Source: a virus (taxonomy: Duplodnaviria; Caudoviricetes). Taken from it: a stretch of DNA of 33,874 bases. The translations under genes were made by a program, and so were the position numbers. Below the pieces are notes generated by a model. That model did no database searches, was not told the DNA's origin, and saw only the letters and a list, made by a program, of their open reading frames with translations. Shown in pieces: positions 1,833-12,236 of this stretch (position 1 is the first letter of the stretch; each line of letters begins with the position of its first letter). The DNA lies in the IMG/VR virus record IMGVR_UViG_3300010964_000013, positions 1-33,874 of that record; one strand, written 5' to 3'.

Positions 1833-2483
1833 TTACTTTGGCGTCATAAGTCGTACTTTGGCGGCCCACTCGACTTTCACATTCTTGATCGTATCGTCGT
1901 CACGGTTCGACTCAAGGTCGAAAAGCCCGTTCCTTCCTCGCCGAATGCGCTTCACGAGAATTCGGTCGTCGGCAAGGCCGACCACACACAGTTTTCCGAT
2001 CAGGTCGTCGGTGACGGGGCGACGGACGTCGTCGTAGAAGATCAGCCACCTGTCGAACAGCGATCCCAAGCTCTCTCCGCGAATTTCGACCGCGACTGTG
2101 TCCGGCGTGCTCCCGTCGGGAGCCTCGACCTCATCGAGATCGCCCTGCGCGACAGCGTAATAGTGGGTCTCCGCGCCCGCCCCGACGTAACCCTTGATCG
2201 GCACAAGGAGGCGGTCGGGCGGCGCCGGCAATTCGCTCTCACCGATCGTCTCGGGGCCGTCGCCGGTCATCAGCCACTGAGGTGTCGTCTCAAGGACGCG
2301 GGCGAGAGCCACGAAGGTTGCCGCTGTGGCGCCTTTGACGGTGATCTTGCCCGCCGCGCCACGCCGGAGATTGTAGATCGCGCTGTCGCTGAGCCCGGCT
2401 CGTCGGGAGGCCGTTGCGGCCTTCAGACCGACTGAGGCGAGTCGACGATTGATGCGCTCGACTATGTCCGTGATGTCGTCCAT
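1833..2483 (-). CDS. cI: CI-like repressor (HTH + S24 autopeptidase)
   Basis: N-terminal HTH (ATASRRAGLSDSAIYNLRRG...LARVLETTPQWLMTG), Ala-Gly cleavage site (VGAG), catalytic Ser (IRGESL) and Lys (LVKRI); divergent from cro. Confidence 0.93.
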   Translation of the reverse strand: MDDITDIVERINRRLASVGLKAATASRRAGLSDSAIYNLRRGAAGKITVKGATAATFVALARVLETTPQWLMTGDGPETIGESELPAPPDRLLVPIKGYVGAGAETHYYAVAQGDLDEVEAPDGSTPDTVAVEIRGESLGSLFDRWLIFYDDVRRPVTDDLIGKLCVVGLADDRILVKRIRRGRNGLFDLESNRDDDTIKNVKVEWAAKVRLMTPK

Positions 2484-2487
2484 GCCC

Positions 2488-2559
2488 CGGTAAGGTGACC
2501 GGCCGCGAGCAACAGGGGAAACAGTAAGATAACTGTTGACCGGAAAAGTAAACTTACCG
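2488..2559. promoter_or_regulatory. OR operators: CGGTAAGGTGACCG (2488-2501), CAGTAAGATAACTG (2522-2535), AAGTAAACTTACCG (2546-2559)
   Basis: Three 14-bp imperfect palindromes sharing the OL consensus, in the cI-cro intergenic region. Confidence 0.75.
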
Positions 2560-2564
2560 ATCGT
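2536..2564 (+). promoter_or_regulatory. Rightward early promoter PR (TTGACC-17 bp-GATCGT)
   Basis: -35 at 2536-2541, -10 at 2559-2564; same architecture as PL with an operator in the spacer. Confidence 0.7.
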
Positions 2565-2592
2565 GGTGCGCGTTTCCGATTCGGACGTGATC

Positions 2593-2856
2593 ATGAGCGG
2601 TATCGATCAACTGCTGTTGCTCGCCAGGACCTACGGGGCAGCGCACGGCATCGAGCTGTCGACCGTGAGCTGGCGAGTTTTCGGCGACACGAAGAAGCTC
2701 GGCGCTATCGCGGCCGGCGGTGACATCCAGGTCCGGCGCTTCGAGCGGGCTCTTCGCTGGTTCGCGGCTCACTGGCCGGCCGAAACCGCGTGGCCCCCCG
2801 ACGTCCCCCACCCTCCCGCCGATCTCCCCGCCACCAGCACGGAGGCTGCGCCATGA
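2593..2856 (+). CDS. cro: Cro-like small regulator
   Basis: 87 aa, divergent from cI; HTH-like LSTVSWRVFGDTKKL...DIQVRRFERALRWF..HWP, a pattern typical of alphaproteobacterial prophage Cro-position proteins. Confidence 0.75.
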   Translation: MSGIDQLLLLARTYGAAHGIELSTVSWRVFGDTKKLGAIAAGGDIQVRRFERALRWFAAHWPAETAWPPDVPHPPADLPATSTEAAP

Positions 2857-4873: not shown

Positions 4874-5539
4874 ATGAATCAGGTGGGTCGGAACACGCTC
4901 GCGGGCGAGACGCTGCGCAATTTCGTGGAGCGGATCGAGAACGAGGAGGCGCAGAAGAAGCAGCACAGCGACAACATCGCGGCGATCTGCGCGGAGGCGA
5001 AGGCGCAGGGGTTCGTGCCGTCGGCGGTGCGCTACGTGGTCAAGCAGCGCAAGCTCAAGCCGTCTGAGCGGCAGGAGAGCGAGACCCTGCGCGACCTGTA
5101 CATGCACGCCATGGGCATGGCGAGCGAGCCGCCGCTGTTCCGCGCGGTCGGTCTGATGAGCGTGGACATCGCCGTCAAGGAAGCGGTGATCGAGGCCGCG
5201 AAGGCGCTGGTGCCGGCGAACGGATCGATCACGATCGAGGCCGGCGGCTCGCCGGTCCGCCTGAGCCGCGACAAGGACGGCAACGTCGCGGTCACCGAGG
5301 TCGTGGAGAAGCCGGTCGAGCCGGTCGCCGCCGACGGGCGAAAGAAGCCGACGGCGCCGAAAGAGTCCGTCCCGGTGGTGAGCGCGGACGAGGCCGAGTC
5401 GCTCGGGCGGATCGCTCGCCGCGCGGACGTGCCGATCATCCAGAATCCGTTCCCCTACGGCCACCCGAACCGCCCTCACTGGGATCGCGGCTGGCGTGTC
5501 GAGGACGGCGGCGACGGCATGGGTCCGAGCGAGGACTGA
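4874..5539 (+). CDS. GapR-like (DUF2312) DNA-binding protein with a C-terminal extension containing an RMF-like motif
   Basis: LRNFVERIENEEAQKK...ICAEAKAQGF...VVKQRK...ERQESETLRDLYMHAMGM matches the GapR pattern; C-terminal G..A..A.....NPFP.....R..W..GW; GGAGG RBS. Confidence 0.82.
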   Translation: MNQVGRNTLAGETLRNFVERIENEEAQKKQHSDNIAAICAEAKAQGFVPSAVRYVVKQRKLKPSERQESETLRDLYMHAMGMASEPPLFRAVGLMSVDIAVKEAVIEAAKALVPANGSITIEAGGSPVRLSRDKDGNVAVTEVVEKPVEPVAADGRKKPTAPKESVPVVSADEAESLGRIARRADVPIIQNPFPYGHPNRPHWDRGWRVEDGGDGMGPSED

Positions 5540-5542
5540 TCC

Positions 5543-6475
5543 ATGGCCCGTGCGTTCGCCGAGATCGTGCAGCCGGACGAGGCCATCGAGCCGATCCTGG
5601 CGCGCCCCGTTCGCCAGGCGCTGCTCGAATGGCTGGAGGAGATTTGGACTGAGCCGGAGCTGATGGCGGTCGGCGTCAAGCCCCGGCGGCGTGCGCTGTT
5701 CGCCGGTGGCGCCGGCACCGGCAAGACCACGCTGGCGCACCATCTCGCGGCGCGGCTCGGCCTGCCGATGGCGATCGTGCGGCCTGACGACGTGTACGGT
5801 CGCTATCTCGGCACCGGCACCAGCAACATCAAGTATGTGTTCGATCAGGCCGAGGCGATCGAGACGCCCGTGCTGCTGTTCTTCGACGAGTTCGACACGG
5901 TGGCGCAGAAGCGGATGCGGTCCGGCGTCAACGAGGCGGCCGAGCACGACCACAATGCGATGATCAACACGCTCCTGGCGCGGCTCGATGCCTATCCGTC
6001 GTTCATCATCGCGGCGACCAACAGCGCGCAGTCGATCGACGAATCCGTGTGGCGGCGGTTCGACATTCAGATCGCGATCGAGCTGCCGGGCCAGTTCGAG
6101 CGCGAACGCATCCTGGCGCGCTACCTCGCGCCATTCGGTCTCGGCCGTGAGGGGCTGCGGCATCTCGCGGAGGCGTTCGCGACGGCGACGCCCGCGCTGA
6201 TCAGATCGTGGTGCGAGAATCTGAAACGGCAGATCGTGGTCGGCCCACGGTGCGGCTGGGACATGACCAAGCACGCCGTCGTCGAGCGGCTGATCGCCGC
6301 CGTGCAACCTCACCCCGATGCCGGCAAGCCACGGCTGTGGTCGCTCGGCGCCAAGGACCATGCGGTCGGCATGATGCCATGGCCCCTCCCGCGTTCGTGC
6401 GATGTCCCGGACGACGCGCCGGCCGGCGACCGCGACGACGGCGGGAACGTCGTCCGGCTCGGGAGCACACGCTGA
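5543..6475 (+). CDS. AAA+ ATPase
   Basis: Walker A GGAGTGKT, Walker B LLFFDEFD, sensor-1 IIAATN, SRH IDESVWRRFD. Confidence 0.92.
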   Translation: MARAFAEIVQPDEAIEPILARPVRQALLEWLEEIWTEPELMAVGVKPRRRALFAGGAGTGKTTLAHHLAARLGLPMAIVRPDDVYGRYLGTGTSNIKYVFDQAEAIETPVLLFFDEFDTVAQKRMRSGVNEAAEHDHNAMINTLLARLDAYPSFIIAATNSAQSIDESVWRRFDIQIAIELPGQFERERILARYLAPFGLGREGLRHLAEAFATATPALIRSWCENLKRQIVVGPRCGWDMTKHAVVERLIAAVQPHPDAGKPRLWSLGAKDHAVGMMPWPLPRSCDVPDDAPAGDRDDGGNVVRLGSTR

Positions 6476-6506
6476 TGCCCGTGGAATGGCAAGTCGGGAG
6501 AGAGCA

Positions 6507-7424
6507 ATGAACGTGGTGCAGATCATCAGCTCGCCGTCTTTCGATCAGGTTCTGGTGTCCGGCGCGTCGCTTCGGATCGATCAGGACCTGGCGGCGCGGT
6601 TGCTCGCGGAATGCCCCTACGACGGGCAGCGCGCCCTGAACGACGACCGTGCCCTGCTTCTCGCCGCGGCGATGGAGCACGGCACCTTCATGCAGAACAC
6701 GCAGATTGCGTTCGCCCGTTGCGATGGCCGCTATTTCTTGGTCAACGGCCAGCACCGGCTCAACGCCATCACGCTGGCGCAGCAGGCGCAGGCGTTCCGC
6801 ATCGAAGTGTACGACTGTCGGTCGCGGGACGAGGTCGATGCCTGTTACTGCCGGTTCGATCAGCCGGGCGGCCAGCGCTCGTTGACACAGGTCAGCCGGT
6901 CGCTCGGGCTGCACGACAGCGCGGAAGGCGGCCTTCGGCCGGCGACGGCCGCGCTTCTGCTCCGGTCCGTTCCGATGCTGATGATCGGGCGGCGGCGCAT
7001 CGCGCCGTCGCAGCGCCCGCGCGACACCCGCGATCTCGACGTGAAGCGCGATTTCGCGATGCGCTGGAAGCCGTGGGCGATCGACTATCAGTCCTGCCTC
7101 GATCAGGGCATCGGTCAGCGCACCGGACGGTACCGGGCTGGCGGCGTGTTCGCCGTCGCGCTCGTCACGCTGCGCTATCAGAATGCCAAGGCCCGCGAGT
7201 TCTGGGGGCCGTCGATCCGCAACAACGGGCTCCTGGTCGGCGATCCGCGGGGCGCGCTGCACTCGCACTTTCTCTCGGCGAAGCGGGCGACCAGCGAATA
7301 CGACCTCGCCGAGGCGGCCGTGCATGCCTGGAACGCCTGGTTCGGCGGCCGGCAGCTCACCATGTGCAAGGTGCTCGGTGCCAGCCTGGCGCCGCGCGGC
7401 ACGCCTTTCACCGGAGAGGCGTGA
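6507..7424 (+). CDS. ParB/Srx-superfamily (DGQHR-like) protein
   Basis: NQR-like GQRAL, LVNGQHRLNAI, FDQPGGQRS motifs; GGAGAG RBS before ATG 6507. Confidence 0.78.
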   Translation: MNVVQIISSPSFDQVLVSGASLRIDQDLAARLLAECPYDGQRALNDDRALLLAAAMEHGTFMQNTQIAFARCDGRYFLVNGQHRLNAITLAQQAQAFRIEVYDCRSRDEVDACYCRFDQPGGQRSLTQVSRSLGLHDSAEGGLRPATAALLLRSVPMLMIGRRRIAPSQRPRDTRDLDVKRDFAMRWKPWAIDYQSCLDQGIGQRTGRYRAGGVFAVALVTLRYQNAKAREFWGPSIRNNGLLVGDPRGALHSHFLSAKRATSEYDLAEAAVHAWNAWFGGRQLTMCKVLGASLAPRGTPFTGEA

Positions 7425-8953
7425 TGCCGGAGATCGACCTTCATCTCTGCTATCCCAGTCTGGCGGCGCGGCCGGTAGACTCGGCCTCGGTGGATGTGCT
7501 GGCGGCCAGCATCGCCGAGAACGGCCTGATGCAGCCGATCACCGTGCGGCCCGCCAAACGCTCGCGCGCCGGCCAGACCTGCGACGCCTATGAGGTGATC
7601 GCCGGGATGCATCGCGTGAAGGCGTTTCGCAAGCTCGGGCGCACGACGATTCCGGCTGTCGTGGTCGAGGTCGACGATCTGCGCGCCGAGCTGATGCTGA
7701 TCGACGAGAACCTTGCACGTAACGACCTCTCGGCCGCCGAGCGGGCGTCGTACAACACCCGCCGCAAGGCGATCTGGCAGGAGCTGCACCCGGAGACGAA
7801 GCGGCACGCAGCCGGGAACGGTCGCACCAAGGCAGAGTTGGTTGCTCAAGTTGAGCAACCAACTTCCGAACCGGCTGCTCGCTACGACGAAGTTGCGGCC
7901 TCGGCGACGGGTCAAGCCTCGTCGACTATCCGAAGGGACTGCACCCGGGGGGAAGCCCTGGGCGGGGCCGCGCTCGCCAAGGTGGCGCGGACCTCGCTCG
8001 ACAAAGGGGAAGAGCTGGACGCCTTGGCGAAGCTGCGGAAGACGGACGCGGCCCGCGCCGCGGAGCTGATCGATAGGGCTGCGGCGGGCGAGAAGGTTTC
8101 GGCCAAGATCGAGCTGAAGAAGGCCGCGCGCGCCGCCCGTGAGGCCGATCTCGGCGCACGGCAATGCGCGCTGCCGCAGCGTCGTTACGGCGTGATTCTC
8201 GCCGATCCGGAGTGGCGGTTTGCCGTGCGATCGCGCGAAACTGGGCTCGATCGGGCCGCCGACAACCATTACCCGACCAGCTCGACCGACGAGATCGCGG
8301 CGCGCGACGTGGGCGCCATCGCGGCCGACGACTGCGCTCTGTTCCTGTGGGCGACTGTGCCGATGCTTCCCGACGCGCTGCGCGTGATGGCGGCATGGGG
8401 CTTCCGCTACGTGAGTCATTTCGTCTGGGCCAAGGATCGCGTCGGCACCGGCTACTGGAACCGCAACAGGCACGAGCTGCTGCTGGTCGGCACCCGCGGC
8501 GCCCCGCCGGCACCGGCTCCGGGCACGCAGTGGGACAGCCTGATCGAAGCGCCGGTCGGTGCGCATTCGGCCAAGCCCGAACAGTTTCTGGCGCTGGTCG
8601 AGGCTTATTACCCGAGCCTCGCCAAGATCGAGCTGAACCGCCGCGGGCCGCCGCGCCCGGGGTGGGATGCGTGGGGCAACGAGGCCGAGCCGCCGGCGCA
8701 AGATGCCGACATCGACACCGGCGAGATCGCCGGCACCGAAACCGCCTACCCGGCCGGGGCGGACGACCAGTCGGCCGGATCACCCACCGTGGAGTCCTCG
8801 CATGAGGTGAGCCAGAGCGACGTGAGTCGCATGCCTCGGGAGGGGCCGGCCGTGTCGCAGCGGTCGGCCCGGCATGCGGAGCCCGAGGACGATGGGCTCG
8901 ATATTCCCGCCTTCCTGCGGCGACCGGCGCCGTCCGAAACCACGGAGACGTGA
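7424..8953 (+). CDS. ParB-N + HTH + MT-A70-family adenine methyltransferase fusion (509 aa)
   Basis: ParB: LAASIAENGLMQPITVR, IAGMHRVKA, ENLARNDL. HTH: AASATGQASSTIRRD. MT-A70: VILADPEW, NHYPT, ALFLWAT, WGFRY, FVWAK, GTGYWNRNRHELLLVGTRG, HSAKPE, KIELNRR, GWDAWGNE. TGATG overlap with the upstream gene. Confidence 0.9.
   Translation: MPEIDLHLCYPSLAARPVDSASVDVLAASIAENGLMQPITVRPAKRSRAGQTCDAYEVIAGMHRVKAFRKLGRTTIPAVVVEVDDLRAELMLIDENLARNDLSAAERASYNTRRKAIWQELHPETKRHAAGNGRTKAELVAQVEQPTSEPAARYDEVAASATGQASSTIRRDCTRGEALGGAALAKVARTSLDKGEELDALAKLRKTDAARAAELIDRAAAGEKVSAKIELKKAARAAREADLGARQCALPQRRYGVILADPEWRFAVRSRETGLDRAADNHYPTSSTDEIAARDVGAIAADDCALFLWATVPMLPDALRVMAAWGFRYVSHFVWAKDRVGTGYWNRNRHELLLVGTRGAPPAPAPGTQWDSLIEAPVGAHSAKPEQFLALVEAYYPSLAKIELNRRGPPRPGWDAWGNEAEPPAQDADIDTGEIAGTETAYPAGADDQSAGSPTVESSHEVSQSDVSRMPREGPAVSQRSARHAEPEDDGLDIPAFLRRPAPSETTET
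7836..7864. repeat. Perfect 29-bp palindrome AGTTGGTTGCTCAA-G-TTGAGCAACCAACT (candidate parS-like site)
   Basis: 14-bp arms at 7836-7849 and 7851-7864 with a 1-nt centre, inside the ParB-HTH linker. Confidence 0.85.
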
Positions 8954-8954
8954 G

Positions 8955-9974
8955 ATGGCGAGCAAGATCGAGTGGACCGGCCGCAGCGACTGGAATCCGA
9001 TCCGCGGATGCACGCGCGTCTCGGAAGGTTGCCGCAACTGCTATGCCGAGCGGATGGCCGGGAGATTCAGCGAGCCCGGCATGTGGGGCCACGGCATCGC
9101 GGAGCGCACGCCAGCCGGCGCTCGATGGACCGGCCGTGTCGCGGTGCAGTGGGATCGGCTCGACCTGCCGATGCGGTGGCGCAAGCCAGCGCTGATCTTC
9201 GCGTCCAGCACCGCCGACTGGTTCCATGCAGCACTGACGCTCGATGAGATCGCGACGCTGTACGCAATGGCAGTGTCCGCGACGGTAGAGCATGGCCACA
9301 CGATCCAGATCCTCACCAAGCGTGCGGCCAGGATGCGTGAGCTGTTGAACAGCGATGAGTTCTGGCGTGTCGTCGCCCGCCGTCGCTGCGATTGGGCATG
9401 GAGTGCGTTCCACTACGATGCGGCCTCGCCGCCGACGCGCATCTGGCTCGGCATTTCCGCCGAGGATCAGCGGTGCGCCGACGAGCGTATCCCGCATCTG
9501 CTGGCGACGCCGGCGGCCGTGCGTTTTGTGTCGTGCGAACCGTTGCTCGGGCCGATCAATTTGCGGTCTGTCGGCGGTCTCAATGCCATCGCCGATCGTG
9601 ACGATCGGCTCGACCACGCGATCGGACGGAGTCCATCAACCGACGGGGCGCCCGTGAGCGGGTCCGGTCTCGACTGGGTCATCGTCGGCGGCGAAAGCGG
9701 CCCGCAAGCGCGGCCGATGCATCCCGATTGGGCGCGCGACCTTCGTGATCAGTGTGCGGCTGCGGGTGTCCCGTTTTTCTTCAAGCAGTGGGGCGAGTGG
9801 ATGTCCTCTGTAGCAGGCACGCCGCTCTTACCAGACGGAACATCACCCGATCCGTCGCGGTGGAACGCTGCCGACGCCCCCGGCCTCGAATGGATGGTCC
9901 GTGTCGGCAAGGCGCGCGCCGGCCGGCGGCTCGACGGCCGCGAGCACAACGAGATGCCGGAGGTGATGAGGTGA
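8955..9974 (+). CDS. DUF5131 / phage Gp37-Gp68 family protein (radical-SAM-like three-Cys motif)
   Basis: SKIEWT..DWNPIRGCTRVSEGCRNCYAE, QILTKR, IWLGISAEDQ, RFVSCEPLLGP, DWVIVGGESG, VPFFFKQWG. Confidence 0.92.
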   Translation: MASKIEWTGRSDWNPIRGCTRVSEGCRNCYAERMAGRFSEPGMWGHGIAERTPAGARWTGRVAVQWDRLDLPMRWRKPALIFASSTADWFHAALTLDEIATLYAMAVSATVEHGHTIQILTKRAARMRELLNSDEFWRVVARRRCDWAWSAFHYDAASPPTRIWLGISAEDQRCADERIPHLLATPAAVRFVSCEPLLGPINLRSVGGLNAIADRDDRLDHAIGRSPSTDGAPVSGSGLDWVIVGGESGPQARPMHPDWARDLRDQCAAAGVPFFFKQWGEWMSSVAGTPLLPDGTSPDPSRWNAADAPGLEWMVRVGKARAGRRLDGREHNEMPEVMR

Positions 9975-10681
9975 TGAAAGACCCGTGGCATATCGCGCCG
10001 CTCGATGCGTTCCGCGCCATCGTCAGCATGTTCGGCCATGGCGCACAGAAGCACGACGGTCCGGGCGGCGACGACTGGCGACGCGGTCGCGCTTGGTCGG
10101 ACGACTGGTCGGCGCTGCAGCGCCACCTCGCGGCGTGGTGGCTGCGTGACGGCGTCGACGCGGCGTCCGGTCGGTCGCATCTCTGGCACGCGGGGGCGCG
10201 GCTCGCGATCCTGATCGCGGCCGAGCTGCGCGGCCTCGGCACGGACGATCGGCCCGGCGCCGCCTCGCCCATTCCCGCCGCGGCCGCGCGAACCGCGCCG
10301 GGGCTGATCTATCTGGCGACGCCCTACACGCACTATCCGCACGGCATCGAGCGTGCATTCGAGGATGCGAGCGCGCTCGCGGCCCGGCTGATCCAGCAGG
10401 GGCTGCGGGTCTATTCGCCGATCGCGCACACGCATCCGATCGCCGTGCATGGCGGCATCAGCCCGGTGGATCACGAGATCTGGCTGCCGTTCGACGAGAC
10501 CATGATGGCGGCGGCCGACACGCTGTATGTGGCGGAGATGGCGGGCTGGCACCGCTCGCGCGGCATCGCCCACGAGATTCGCGTGTTCCGGCGCGCCGAC
10601 AAGCCGGTCTACACGATTGACCCGGTCACGCTCGTGATCACGCCGTGGGTTCGTGGGACGTCGGCGGGCGATCAAGCATGA
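9974..10681 (+). CDS. Fusion of a DUF5664 (dATP/dGTP diphosphohydrolase-like) domain and a DUF1937 (nucleoside deoxyribosyltransferase-like) domain
   Basis: N-terminal KDPWHIAP..A...FGHGAQK...W..G..WS...AL.RHL..W...D..SG..HL.HA; C-terminal IYLATPYT...VYSPIAHTHP...WL..D...GW..SRGI..EI......KPV. Confidence 0.75.
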   Translation: MKDPWHIAPLDAFRAIVSMFGHGAQKHDGPGGDDWRRGRAWSDDWSALQRHLAAWWLRDGVDAASGRSHLWHAGARLAILIAAELRGLGTDDRPGAASPIPAAAARTAPGLIYLATPYTHYPHGIERAFEDASALAARLIQQGLRVYSPIAHTHPIAVHGGISPVDHEIWLPFDETMMAAADTLYVAEMAGWHRSRGIAHEIRVFRRADKPVYTIDPVTLVITPWVRGTSAGDQA

Positions 10682-10911: not shown

Positions 10912-12236
10912 GCATCGTCGCGATGAACTGGGCCATGCAGCAGCGGCCCGACGGGCCGTCGGCGCAAGTCGTGCTGCTGGTGATCGCCGACCGCGCGAAC
11001 GAGCGCGGCATTTGCCGCCACGCCGATCCGGACGACATCGCCGAAATCTCGCGGCAGTCGCGCGCCACCGTGTTCCGCCGGCTGGACGAGCTGGAGCGGG
11101 TGGGCCTGCTCACCCGGTTCCTGCGCCACGGCGAGCGGGGCGAGCGGGAGTACGAAATCCGGCTCAATCTCGATGCCAGGGTGGAATACGAGCTGGTGCA
11201 GGACCGGGAGACCGGCCGGCGCGTGATCAGGCTGCGTGATGCAGCGGGCGAGAACGAGCGCGAGATCGTGTTGCGCGGCGGCGCCGACGAGCGGTCCACC
11301 GAGGCGGACGAGGGTGCCGCACAGCCCGAGTCTCAATTTGAGACTGTGGTCGAGTCTCAAATTGAGACTGAGCGAGTCTCACCCGTGAGACTCGGTGAGT
11401 CTCACTCGTGCGACTCTCATAAGAGTCCGTCCAAGAATCCATCTCCTACCCCCAAAGCCCCCTCCCTCGCGGCGATGCCGCAGGGTGGGCGAGAGGAACC
11501 AGATCGCGAGGCTGTGCCAGACACCAGCGGCCTTGAAGAGTTTCGACGGGTCTATCCGGAGAGCAGCAATCGCCCGGCGCTGGTCGAGGCGCTGTGGAGT
11601 GGCTTGAGCGCCGCCGAGCGGGCGCAGGCGCTGCGTGGCGCGCGCGGCCTCGCCGAACAGCGCCGCCGCAACGCGAAGCGATCCGTGCTCGATCCCGCGC
11701 GGTTCTTGCGCGACCCCAGGCTGTTCGCCGAACACGCCCGGTTCGCGCCTGCCGACGAGCCGGCGCCGCAATGGGTGGCGCTCGACTCGGCGCAGTGGCG
11801 GGGCCGCGCCGTGCTCGCGGAGATCCGTCGTGGCGCAATGCCGCGCGCCGGCCGGCGGCCGGACGGCGAGGGCGAGGGCGCCTTCATGCGGCCACTCCCG
11901 GACGATCGCGTGCTCGCGCTCGCCCGCTTCGCCGACGAGCTCGTCTCGTCGTGGCCGATCGTCGATGAGCGCTCGGCGCGGTTCCATCGCTGGTCCGAGT
12001 GGCTGGCGCCGCTCGGCGTGCGGCTGGTGCCGCAGCGTGAGCGGGTGCCCGGCGAGACCGTGGTGCTCAACACGCCGCGCGGTCCGATCGAGGGGCCGAA
12101 GTGGATCGTCGGGGCGCGCGTGCCGAGCGAGTGGCCGCCGGCCCGCTCGCCGCCGACCGGCCCGCTCGATGCGGTGGACGACGGCGGCGAGGCCGTGGCG
12201 GCGAAGGCGGAGGCGAGCGATGTTGGCGGCGAGTGA
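10908..12236 (+). CDS. Phage replication initiator with an N-terminal winged HTH (lambda O analogue)
   Basis: MSIVAMNWA...AQVVLLVIADRAN..G.C...IAEIS.QSRATVFRRLDELERVGLL; contains an iteron array; C-terminal F...YP domain. Confidence 0.82.
   Translation: MSIVAMNWAMQQRPDGPSAQVVLLVIADRANERGICRHADPDDIAEISRQSRATVFRRLDELERVGLLTRFLRHGERGEREYEIRLNLDARVEYELVQDRETGRRVIRLRDAAGENEREIVLRGGADERSTEADEGAAQPESQFETVVESQIETERVSPVRLGESHSCDSHKSPSKNPSPTPKAPSLAAMPQGGREEPDREAVPDTSGLEEFRRVYPESSNRPALVEALWSGLSAAERAQALRGARGLAEQRRRNAKRSVLDPARFLRDPRLFAEHARFAPADEPAPQWVALDSAQWRGRAVLAEIRRGAMPRAGRRPDGEGEGAFMRPLPDDRVLALARFADELVSSWPIVDERSARFHRWSEWLAPLGVRLVPQRERVPGETVVLNTPRGPIEGPKWIVGARVPSEWPPARSPPTGPLDAVDDGGEAVAAKAEASDVGGE
11329..11415. 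repeat. Four palindromic iterons AGTCTCA-N3/4-TG(A/C)GACT: probable phage replication origin
   Basis: Starts at 11329, 11353, 11375 and 11398 (22-24 bp period), inside the initiator gene as in lambda ori/O. Confidence 0.85.

Follow-up and report, generated by a model that had tools for sequence, protein, structure and literature searches.

A palindromic site inside a phage ParB-methyltransferase gene that co-varies with the recognition helix of its own product

Phage proteins that join a ParB domain to a methyltransferase raise the question of where on the DNA they act. We addressed this question for one such fusion, encoded in 33,874 nucleotides of a Caudoviricetes genome (Duplodnaviria; IMG/VR record IMGVR_UViG_3300010964_000013, positions 1 to 33,874; this whole stretch is called the window). 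Its gene contains a palindrome between the codons for the ParB domain and those for the helix-turn-helix (HTH). Comparison with relatives indicated that a self-site system is real and strongly supported, with a proposed sliding methylase as the most likely single mechanism. The features needed first are:

7424..8953, + strand: ParB-N/HTH/MT-A70 fusion gene, 509 amino acids, belonging to the rightward early operon of a temperate HK97-like phage
7836..7864: perfect palindrome centred on 7850, with its inner core at 7844-7856 and a pair at 7839/7861 that is always symmetric; the protein is predicted to bind and load here
7790..7882, + strand: variable linker, residues 123-153, with a Gly/Arg-rich arm, partly encoded by the palindrome
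7883..7960, + strand: helix-turn-helix, helices 154-162 and 166-179, with the specificity residues 166, 167, 170 and 171 at 7919-7936
7802..7933, + strand: exchangeable specificity cassette of arm, site and HTH to residue 170, delimited by the run X3 contig and the P0002 protein patch

The palindrome has 14-bp arms around a 1-nt spacer and a GC content of 45 % in a window of 68 % GC; it falls at residues 138-147, into a linker of low model confidence that joins the ParB domain to the HTH. In 200 dinucleotide shuffles of the whole window, an arm of 14 bp with a loop of at most 3 nt was never reached, the best arm being 13, twice. The initial annotation had described a perfect, relatively AT-rich 29-bp palindrome between the two coding regions and no second copy in the window. 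Both descriptions held, the search at up to 8 mismatches in 29 positions returning only the palindrome itself.

For a survey of the family, 169 loci from viral and genome collections were combined with the window and reduced to 145 non-redundant genes, a set that retains misses and one probable non-member; two of the locus collections were the best 80 of 198 and the best 80 of 315. The fusion was common, with 4787 matches among 7998 scored candidates, many of them via the MT-A70 domain. The search of a plasmid collection yielded one record, and an HTH-only scan of viral contigs gave almost only loci already known. Perfect arms of at least 7 bp were present in the ParB-HTH linker of 83 of the 145 genes; equally long flanking windows had them in 3 and 6 of 145. 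At least 10 of the 12 pairs at distances 2-13 from the central base were symmetric in 111 of 145 linkers, versus one of 145 control windows; homologues thus carry different palindromes in the same linker, as had been anticipated, with at least 18 core types among 101 sites. The palindrome centre was distributed 25/4/25 over the three reading frames (54 sequences), and its distance to the HTH varied. Since all three frames are used and the distance is variable, the DNA and not the peptide has been kept, and these patterns show that selection acts on the site as DNA. Arms of at least 7 bp were equally present in members without MT-A70 (36 of 73) and with MT-A70 (47 of 72). The site therefore belongs to the ParB-HTH clamp module and not to the methylase, which corrects the earlier interpretation. 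All eight cultured Mu-like phages fetched had a methylase-free homologue with a palindromic site, just upstream of transposase A.

The letters of the site followed the recognition helix. A total of 109 perfect-core sites were called, eight without A at -2 were dropped, and 101 were analysed, 54 of them below 70 % identity. Among about 165 protein columns, the best for bases -6, -5, -4 and -3 were residues 170, 167, 167 and 171, with z values of 22, 14, 13 and 10 in the 54 sequences. In this set, residue 170 and the base at ±6 were paired as follows: R with G (13/13), Q with C (21/22), E with C (5/5), A with T (6/6) and N with G (5/6). An R at residue 167 went with G at -5 in 39 of 39 cases and not with T at ±4, S or A with T at -4 in 9 of 10; an R at residue 171 went with C at ±3 in 43 of 44, other residues with A in 9 of 10. 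Residue 166 tracked base ±7 (z 10 at -7), and neighbouring helix residues had no comparable tie to a base. In the structural model, residues 167, 170 and 171 are i, i+3 and i+4 on one helix. Independent pairs, taken from a FastTree tree from which the linker and helix columns were excluded, agreed in 9 of 9 (p 0.004), 9.5 of 11 (p 0.002) and 7.5 of 8 (p 0.016). Within the sample, a core fitting the code on both arms was present in 111 of 142 linkers, whereas shuffled helices gave 26 on average. The 293 close pairs comprised 123 in which helix class and site core had both changed and 170 in which both were unchanged, without a single discordant pair. An out-of-sample set of 10 new metagenome loci and 8 cultured phages contained 15 fits at 8 of 8 positions and two at 6 of 8; among the 15, one has a residue new to the table at position 170 and one is a tied-best site. 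The remaining locus has a fitting asymmetric site that was seen by another scorer only. The window protein with S167, R170 and R171 matches its own core. The expected co-variation of palindrome and recognition helix was thus recovered. Because the site letters change in step with three helix residues across about 100 relatives, docking of the protein on the palindrome in its own gene is very likely.

Natural exchanges were observed at two scales. Two loci with near-identical N-terminal halves (L174 and L178) differ by one R/Q change at residue 170 (helix 165-172), accompanied by G/C at both arms. The protein P0002 shares 93 % identity with the window protein, and the differences are concentrated in residues 127-171. 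A contig of run X3 matches 7300-7801 with 14 differences and 7934-8400 with 2 differences (97-99.6 % identical) and has 141 other bases in place of 7802-7933; P0002 and this contig may be the same DNA and were counted as one line of evidence. Specificity thus shifts by point change as well as by cassette exchange. The site lies in the one stretch of the gene where any peptide is tolerated, and 60-100 bp separate it from the helix codons; reader and site therefore move and mutate together as a cassette, and a given prophage would load no clamp but its own. The initial annotation had suggested a joint inheritance and co-diversification of site and reader, to which the block swap in a near-identical gene and the P0002 patch correspond. 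The proteins of the phages RcapMu (L188:4384-5235) and RcWaterboi (L195:1396-2235) are nearly identical save for linker and helix, an apparent cassette exchange in a cultured host.

Symmetry extended beyond the core. At distances 7-13 from the centre it amounted to 0.77, 0.79, 0.86, 0.93, 1.00, 0.68 and 0.66, with background values from 14 on; the family-wide symmetry hence covers 13 bp from the centre, and the predicted site length is 27-29 bp. The ±11 pair was symmetric in 101 of 101 sites (111 of 111 in a larger set); its base varies, and it was unused in site calling. No aligned column explained ±11 well, the best being residue 109 with a z of 6. The Gly/Arg arm of the linker tracked this base: GGxR went with C in 23 of 24 cases and in three frames (independent pairs 6.1 of 8, p 0.03), and GxGR went with A in 21 of 29 (p 0.07). 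The arm could reach into the next minor groove, one helical turn from the centre. The A-versus-T symmetry at ±11 is stricter than in usual minor-groove reading and is partly unexplained by the arm.

The site is single. Within 8 kb of the gene, 5 extra exact cores were found versus 5.7 expected over 101 loci, none of them in the window, and extra cores with one mismatch numbered 122 versus 150 in GC-matched controls. Nine whole genomes contained 13 core matches, seven inside family genes with 9-12 of 12 symmetric pairs and six elsewhere with 6-8 of 12; in one genome (G004), two family genes have the same core. A multi-operator regulator of the KorB type was rejected on these grounds: extra cores are no more frequent than by chance, and whole-genome matches with outer symmetry are restricted to family genes. 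The longest inverted repeat of the window is an iteron pair in the replication gene (11329-11369). It is part of a group of iteron-like palindromes at 11329-11417, inside the replication initiator gene, with two 17-bp odd-centred copies and shorter even ones. These iterons have an 11-bp core in common with the site in the ParB gene, from which they deviate six positions away from the centre. They were dismissed as a second target, given this mismatch at ±6 in both arms. The Rep of the window had no match in 144 loci.

The predicted clamp and its cargo are encoded by the remaining parts of the gene:

7424..7723, + strand: ParB N-terminal domain, predicted to bind nucleoside triphosphates (NTP); it spans residues 1-100 and has the Box I, GxHR and ENxxR motifs (Pfam, fold, motifs)
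7964..8167, + strand: remainder of the helical domain of ParB type, then a long helix, 227-248, as connection (model)
8171..8704, + strand: adenine methyltransferase domain of the MT-A70 family (beta-class), in which DPEW (8204-8215) and ELN replace DPPW and ELF
8888..8923, + strand: FtsZ-tail-like peptide, residues 489-500, with which a disordered acidic tail ends (TIGR03483, E 8e-4)

The start ATG overlaps the stop codon of the upstream open reading frame. Pfam matched ParB_N to residues 18-97 (E 3e-12) and MT-A70 to residues 255-420 (E 2e-19; PF05063, 71 bits versus a cut-off of 23.9), and the motifs GMHRVKA, ENLARNDL and DPEW are located at residues 61-67, 95-102 and 261-264. An alignment-based AlphaFold2 model was used, with a mean predicted local distance difference test score (pLDDT) of 86; a single-sequence fold of residues 1-248 was poor (pLDDT 47) and was left aside. 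In the model, residues 1-100 aligned with KorB (8qa8; Z 13.1, root-mean-square deviation (rmsd) 1.9, 92 aligned residues) and with PadC (Z 13). Spo0J (1vz0) aligned over residues 18-232 (Z 11.1, rmsd 4.2, 167 aligned), residues 89-240 weakly with the DNA-binding domains of SopB (Z 5.6) and KorB (Z 5.3; 1r71), and residues 245-428 with MTA1/METTL3 (Z 17-18.6, rmsd about 2.6 over about 160 residues). Foldseek returned MT-A70 matches only, and a wider structure search found the other domains. Pfam, motif positions and model agree with the first description of ParB motifs, an HTH and an MT-A70 domain with DPEW in one polypeptide.

The NTP-pocket motifs GxxR and ENxxR were intact in 143 of 143 members, with GxHR and not GxRR in 139. 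The HTH was accompanied by a ParB domain in 113 of 120 proteins according to Pfam; the other seven look truncated or show ParB motifs, and an HTH convincingly without a ParB domain was not found in the family survey. PF17762 matched 3 of the 51 relatives scanned. The curated cut-offs for parB, RepB and Noc were not reached, TIGR00180 with 57.2 versus 58.45 and TIGR03454 and TIGR04285 by far. A ParA-type Walker motif was present within 4 kb in just 2 of 115 loci, and no ParA is annotated in the window. The absence of ParA, the retained NTP motifs and the tie of the HTH to ParB fit a ParA-less single-site clamp better than an operator or a centromere. The protein probably loads at its own site as an NTP-closed clamp, by analogy with other ParB proteins. 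Of the proposed loading with subsequent spreading as a clamp closed by cytidine triphosphate (CTP), loading and spreading remain in accordance with the intact NTP motifs, the fold and the analogy; the nucleotide need not be CTP. ATP binding was found for a fusion with an S-adenosylmethionine (SAM)-dependent methyltransferase, and the NTP choice of ParB-fold proteins was described as unpredictable from sequence (PMC12704722).

Among known systems, KorB of RK2 has the closest N-terminal fold and a weak HTH match, and a clamp job besides segregation. It acts with many OB operators and a ParA partner and has no enzyme domain; we know of no self-site cassette for KorB. BisD of ICEclc resembles the window protein as a ParB-type protein of a mobile element with an odd-centred intragenic 11+1+11 palindrome and a C-terminal effector domain; it loads at this palindrome, bisS, inside coding genes, spreads over at least 50 kb, and its CTP hydrolysis is stimulated by the bisS site (PMC12409273). 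The always-symmetric ±11 pair of the sites in our family has the same geometry. In contrast, bisS occurs in two copies in other genes (inrR, ssb) and the cargo of BisD is a transcription activator (PMC12409273), whereas the family of the window has one site in its own linker codons, a variable code and a methylase domain. Spo0J and Noc share the domain order and the fold, and an R/Q switch in their recognition helix alters a base (PMC7383237, PMC8494293). ParB-parS and Noc-NBS differ in their 16-bp even-centred multi-copy sites, the ParA partner and a nearly fixed specificity (PMC7383237, PMC8494293). In Bacillus subtilis, parS-359 has been assigned to the parB gene (PMC8494293). An mRNA structure in Caulobacter parB (PMC13371061) and HerB without an inverted-repeat site (PMC13370423) have been reported.

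The methylase domain has to be considered separately. The residues D261, W264, E351, S382-K384-P385 and E403 were kept in 114-120 of 120 close homologues, DPPW was kept by more distant members (44 of 72), and the best PADLOC match was a Type II DNA methyltransferase (E 3e-45). Of the 51 MT-A70-free proteins scanned (of 73), four have a methylase of a second family, PF01555, joined to the ParB-HTH module. DPEW (8204-8215) is paired with ELN (8630-8638), DPPW with ELF, ELH or ELY, possibly a compensating pair in the SAM pocket. The domain resembles METTL3, MTA1 and the phage protein BZS1_p32 (PMC7556043) in fold and differs from them in DPEW and ELN. The methylation target was not recoverable from motif bias, the values in the window being 0.95 for GANTC and 1.10 for GATC. 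The FtsZ-tail-like peptide occurred in 27 of 120 close homologues versus 0.01 in shuffled tails, and was absent from the last 60 residues in each of the 73 loci without MT-A70. The C-terminal tail peptide of FtsZ is its docking peptide. Phage ParB-methyltransferase fusions have already been described and are common (PMC6536676, PMC12704722, PMC4738411), and phage ParB domains were proposed to direct DNA modification to sites on the phage genome (PMC6536676). The described phage fusions cluster at the terminase locus, whereas that of the window precedes the replication gene within the early operon. No site is named for them in the accessible parts of these papers, and the main text of PMC12704722 mentions neither palindromes nor anything intragenic. 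The fusion itself, the second fused methylase family, the conserved catalytic residues and the published steering proposal are the basis for the proposed cis-methylation step; adenine methylation may be concentrated in cis, at odds slightly below even.

In the mechanism that we favour as a whole, with a probability of roughly 0.5, a self-site-loaded, ParA-independent sliding clamp carries the MT-A70 domain and likely methylates in cis. The product would bind the 27-29-bp palindrome within its own gene, presumably as a dimer whose two HTHs read the inner core and whose Gly/Arg arm reads the outer block (±9-13). The clamp would close upon NTP binding, and the pair of MT-A70 domains may take the place of the usual C-terminal dimerisation domain. 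The closed clamp would then slide into the neighbouring phage DNA with the MT-A70 domain carried along, and adenine methylation would thereby likely be concentrated in cis. Several observations weigh against this mechanism. MT-A70 was missing in 78 of 170 loci, only three of which have an MT-A70 elsewhere in the locus; with half of the family lacking it, the basic job of the module needs no methylase. The DPEW and ELN motifs, departing from DPPW and ELF, were present in 89 of 120 close homologues. No NTP was bound by 17 of 28 purified ParB-fold proteins (PMC12704722), and a phage ParB that activates a T-dioxygenase works without the NTP residues (PMC13229309). The same protein was found on a 402-kb contig, and spreading from such a prophage would also reach the host flanks. 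The link between arm and outer base is weaker (p 0.03 and 0.07) and a rule for residue 165 fell short of significance (3.5 of 6 pairs, p 0.125). A code-predicted linker site was missing in 31 of 142 genes, several of which carry palindromes outside the simple code; a search for relocated sites in these 31 loci gave one, resembling a terminator hairpin.

An alternative is a self-binding regulator that binds, and perhaps spreads from, its own gene and so limits its own or early-operon expression, as a roadblock or a KorB-like silencer, with the methylase acting in trans on any DNA. We consider this less likely, but it has arguments on its side: the single site inside the gene, the position of methylase-free members in the Mu-like early operon next to transposase A, the private pairs of site and helix that suit an independent control of co-resident prophages, the shared core of the two family genes in G004, and the stand-alone phage MT-A70 enzymes that work without a loader (PMC7556043). 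A static repressor, however, would not need NTP motifs kept in all 143 members; moreover, the median distance of the site from the gene start is about 370 nt, no promoter-like match was found in 6300-9200, and two methylase families are fused to the module. Improbable, in our view, is a clamp that loads while its DPEW/ELN MT-A70 is inactive or acts on RNA, serving dimerisation or as scaffold, with another cargo such as the FtsZ-tail-like peptide. The paired departure from the usual motifs, the inactive and RNA-directed members of the MT-A70 family (PMC4738411), the excess of the peptide over shuffled tails and the missing GANTC or GATC bias would agree with it, but the catalytic aspartate and the SAM-pocket residues are nearly invariant, distant members retain DPPW, the top PADLOC match is a DNA methyltransferase, and most members have no such peptide.

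That the site is a parS for the segregation of an extrachromosomal prophage is very improbable. The ParB fold and the NTP motifs would allow it and parS-359 is a precedent within a parB gene, but the scarcity of ParA and the occurrence of members in transposable phages and integrated prophages contradict it. It is also hardly credible that the palindrome acts as a hairpin in RNA or single-stranded DNA, or arose through template switching, and that its correlation with the helix is due to linkage alone. It folds well as RNA (z -3.9), the arm lengths in the family are bimodal, site and helix codons are close together, and no protein column fully accounts for the strict ±11 pairing; yet mismatches at 7-13 from the centre had no excess of G.U over A.C (16 versus 26), symmetry dips at ±7-8 and stops sharply at ±13, and each base goes with one particular residue across many combinations, a tie that neighbouring helix residues lack.

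The surroundings of the gene are those of an HK97-like temperate phage, with a repressor at 1833-2594 (- strand), a rightward early operon, a replication initiator, a NusG-like gene, a terminase and structural genes. The upstream gene (6495-7424) has a second ParB-like motif, NGQHRL, matches to phrog_5931 (E 1e-12) and weakly to DUF6551 (E 0.012), and tblastn matches in 30 of 144 loci, anywhere in the locus. Before it, 4874-6475 encodes a GapR-like nucleoid protein and then an AAA ATPase with similarity to the anti-phage IteA/IetA that stays under the curated cut-off; GapR-like matches occurred in 19 loci, every one with an MT-A70 fusion. Directly downstream, 8955-10681 contains a DUF5131 gene and then a fusion of dATP/dGTP diphosphohydrolase-N and DUF1937; DUF5131 matched in 12 loci, every one MT-A70-fused. 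Elsewhere in the family, an even centre or a 2-nt spacer replaces the usual single central base in L106 and L158. Magnetococcales genomes (L108, L121, L126, L129, L140, L145, L148, L150, L151, L162, L163) carry several methylase-free family genes, of which some have a strong site and others none. In Rhodoplanes serenus (L093), a degraded family gene has two further long palindromes at its flanks, about 1.8 kb away on each side; their arms measure 15 and 12, and their core type is one of the family.

The literature cited describes the fusion, the code of ParB/Noc, BisD and the assignment of a parS to parB. For phage proteins of this kind, no account of a site within the protein's own gene that follows a variable helix code was found in the accessible literature; the supplements of PMC12704722 could bear on this. 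Phage ParB-methyltransferase fusions are abundant, and their proposed steering role came without a named target; here each protein is given a predicted site that follows from its own gene. The natural swaps act as controls, and cultured phages such as RcapMu offer test systems. The protein-DNA code is compact, with many orthogonal pairs of site and helix in one fold, far more varied than in ParB/Noc. More tentatively, the protein may be a self-addressed writer, a methyltransferase that loads as a sliding ring only on its encoding DNA and marks the phage genome from one internal site, its address being altered via a three-residue helix code and a 130-bp cassette. The same clamp might then be a general delivery vehicle of temperate and transposable phages, considering the two methylase families, the FtsZ-tail-like peptide and partners in trans. 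If this is true, the clamp could be reprogrammed to methylate chosen loci, and if the clamp does slide, the enzyme could tell self from host DNA by topology and not by sequence.

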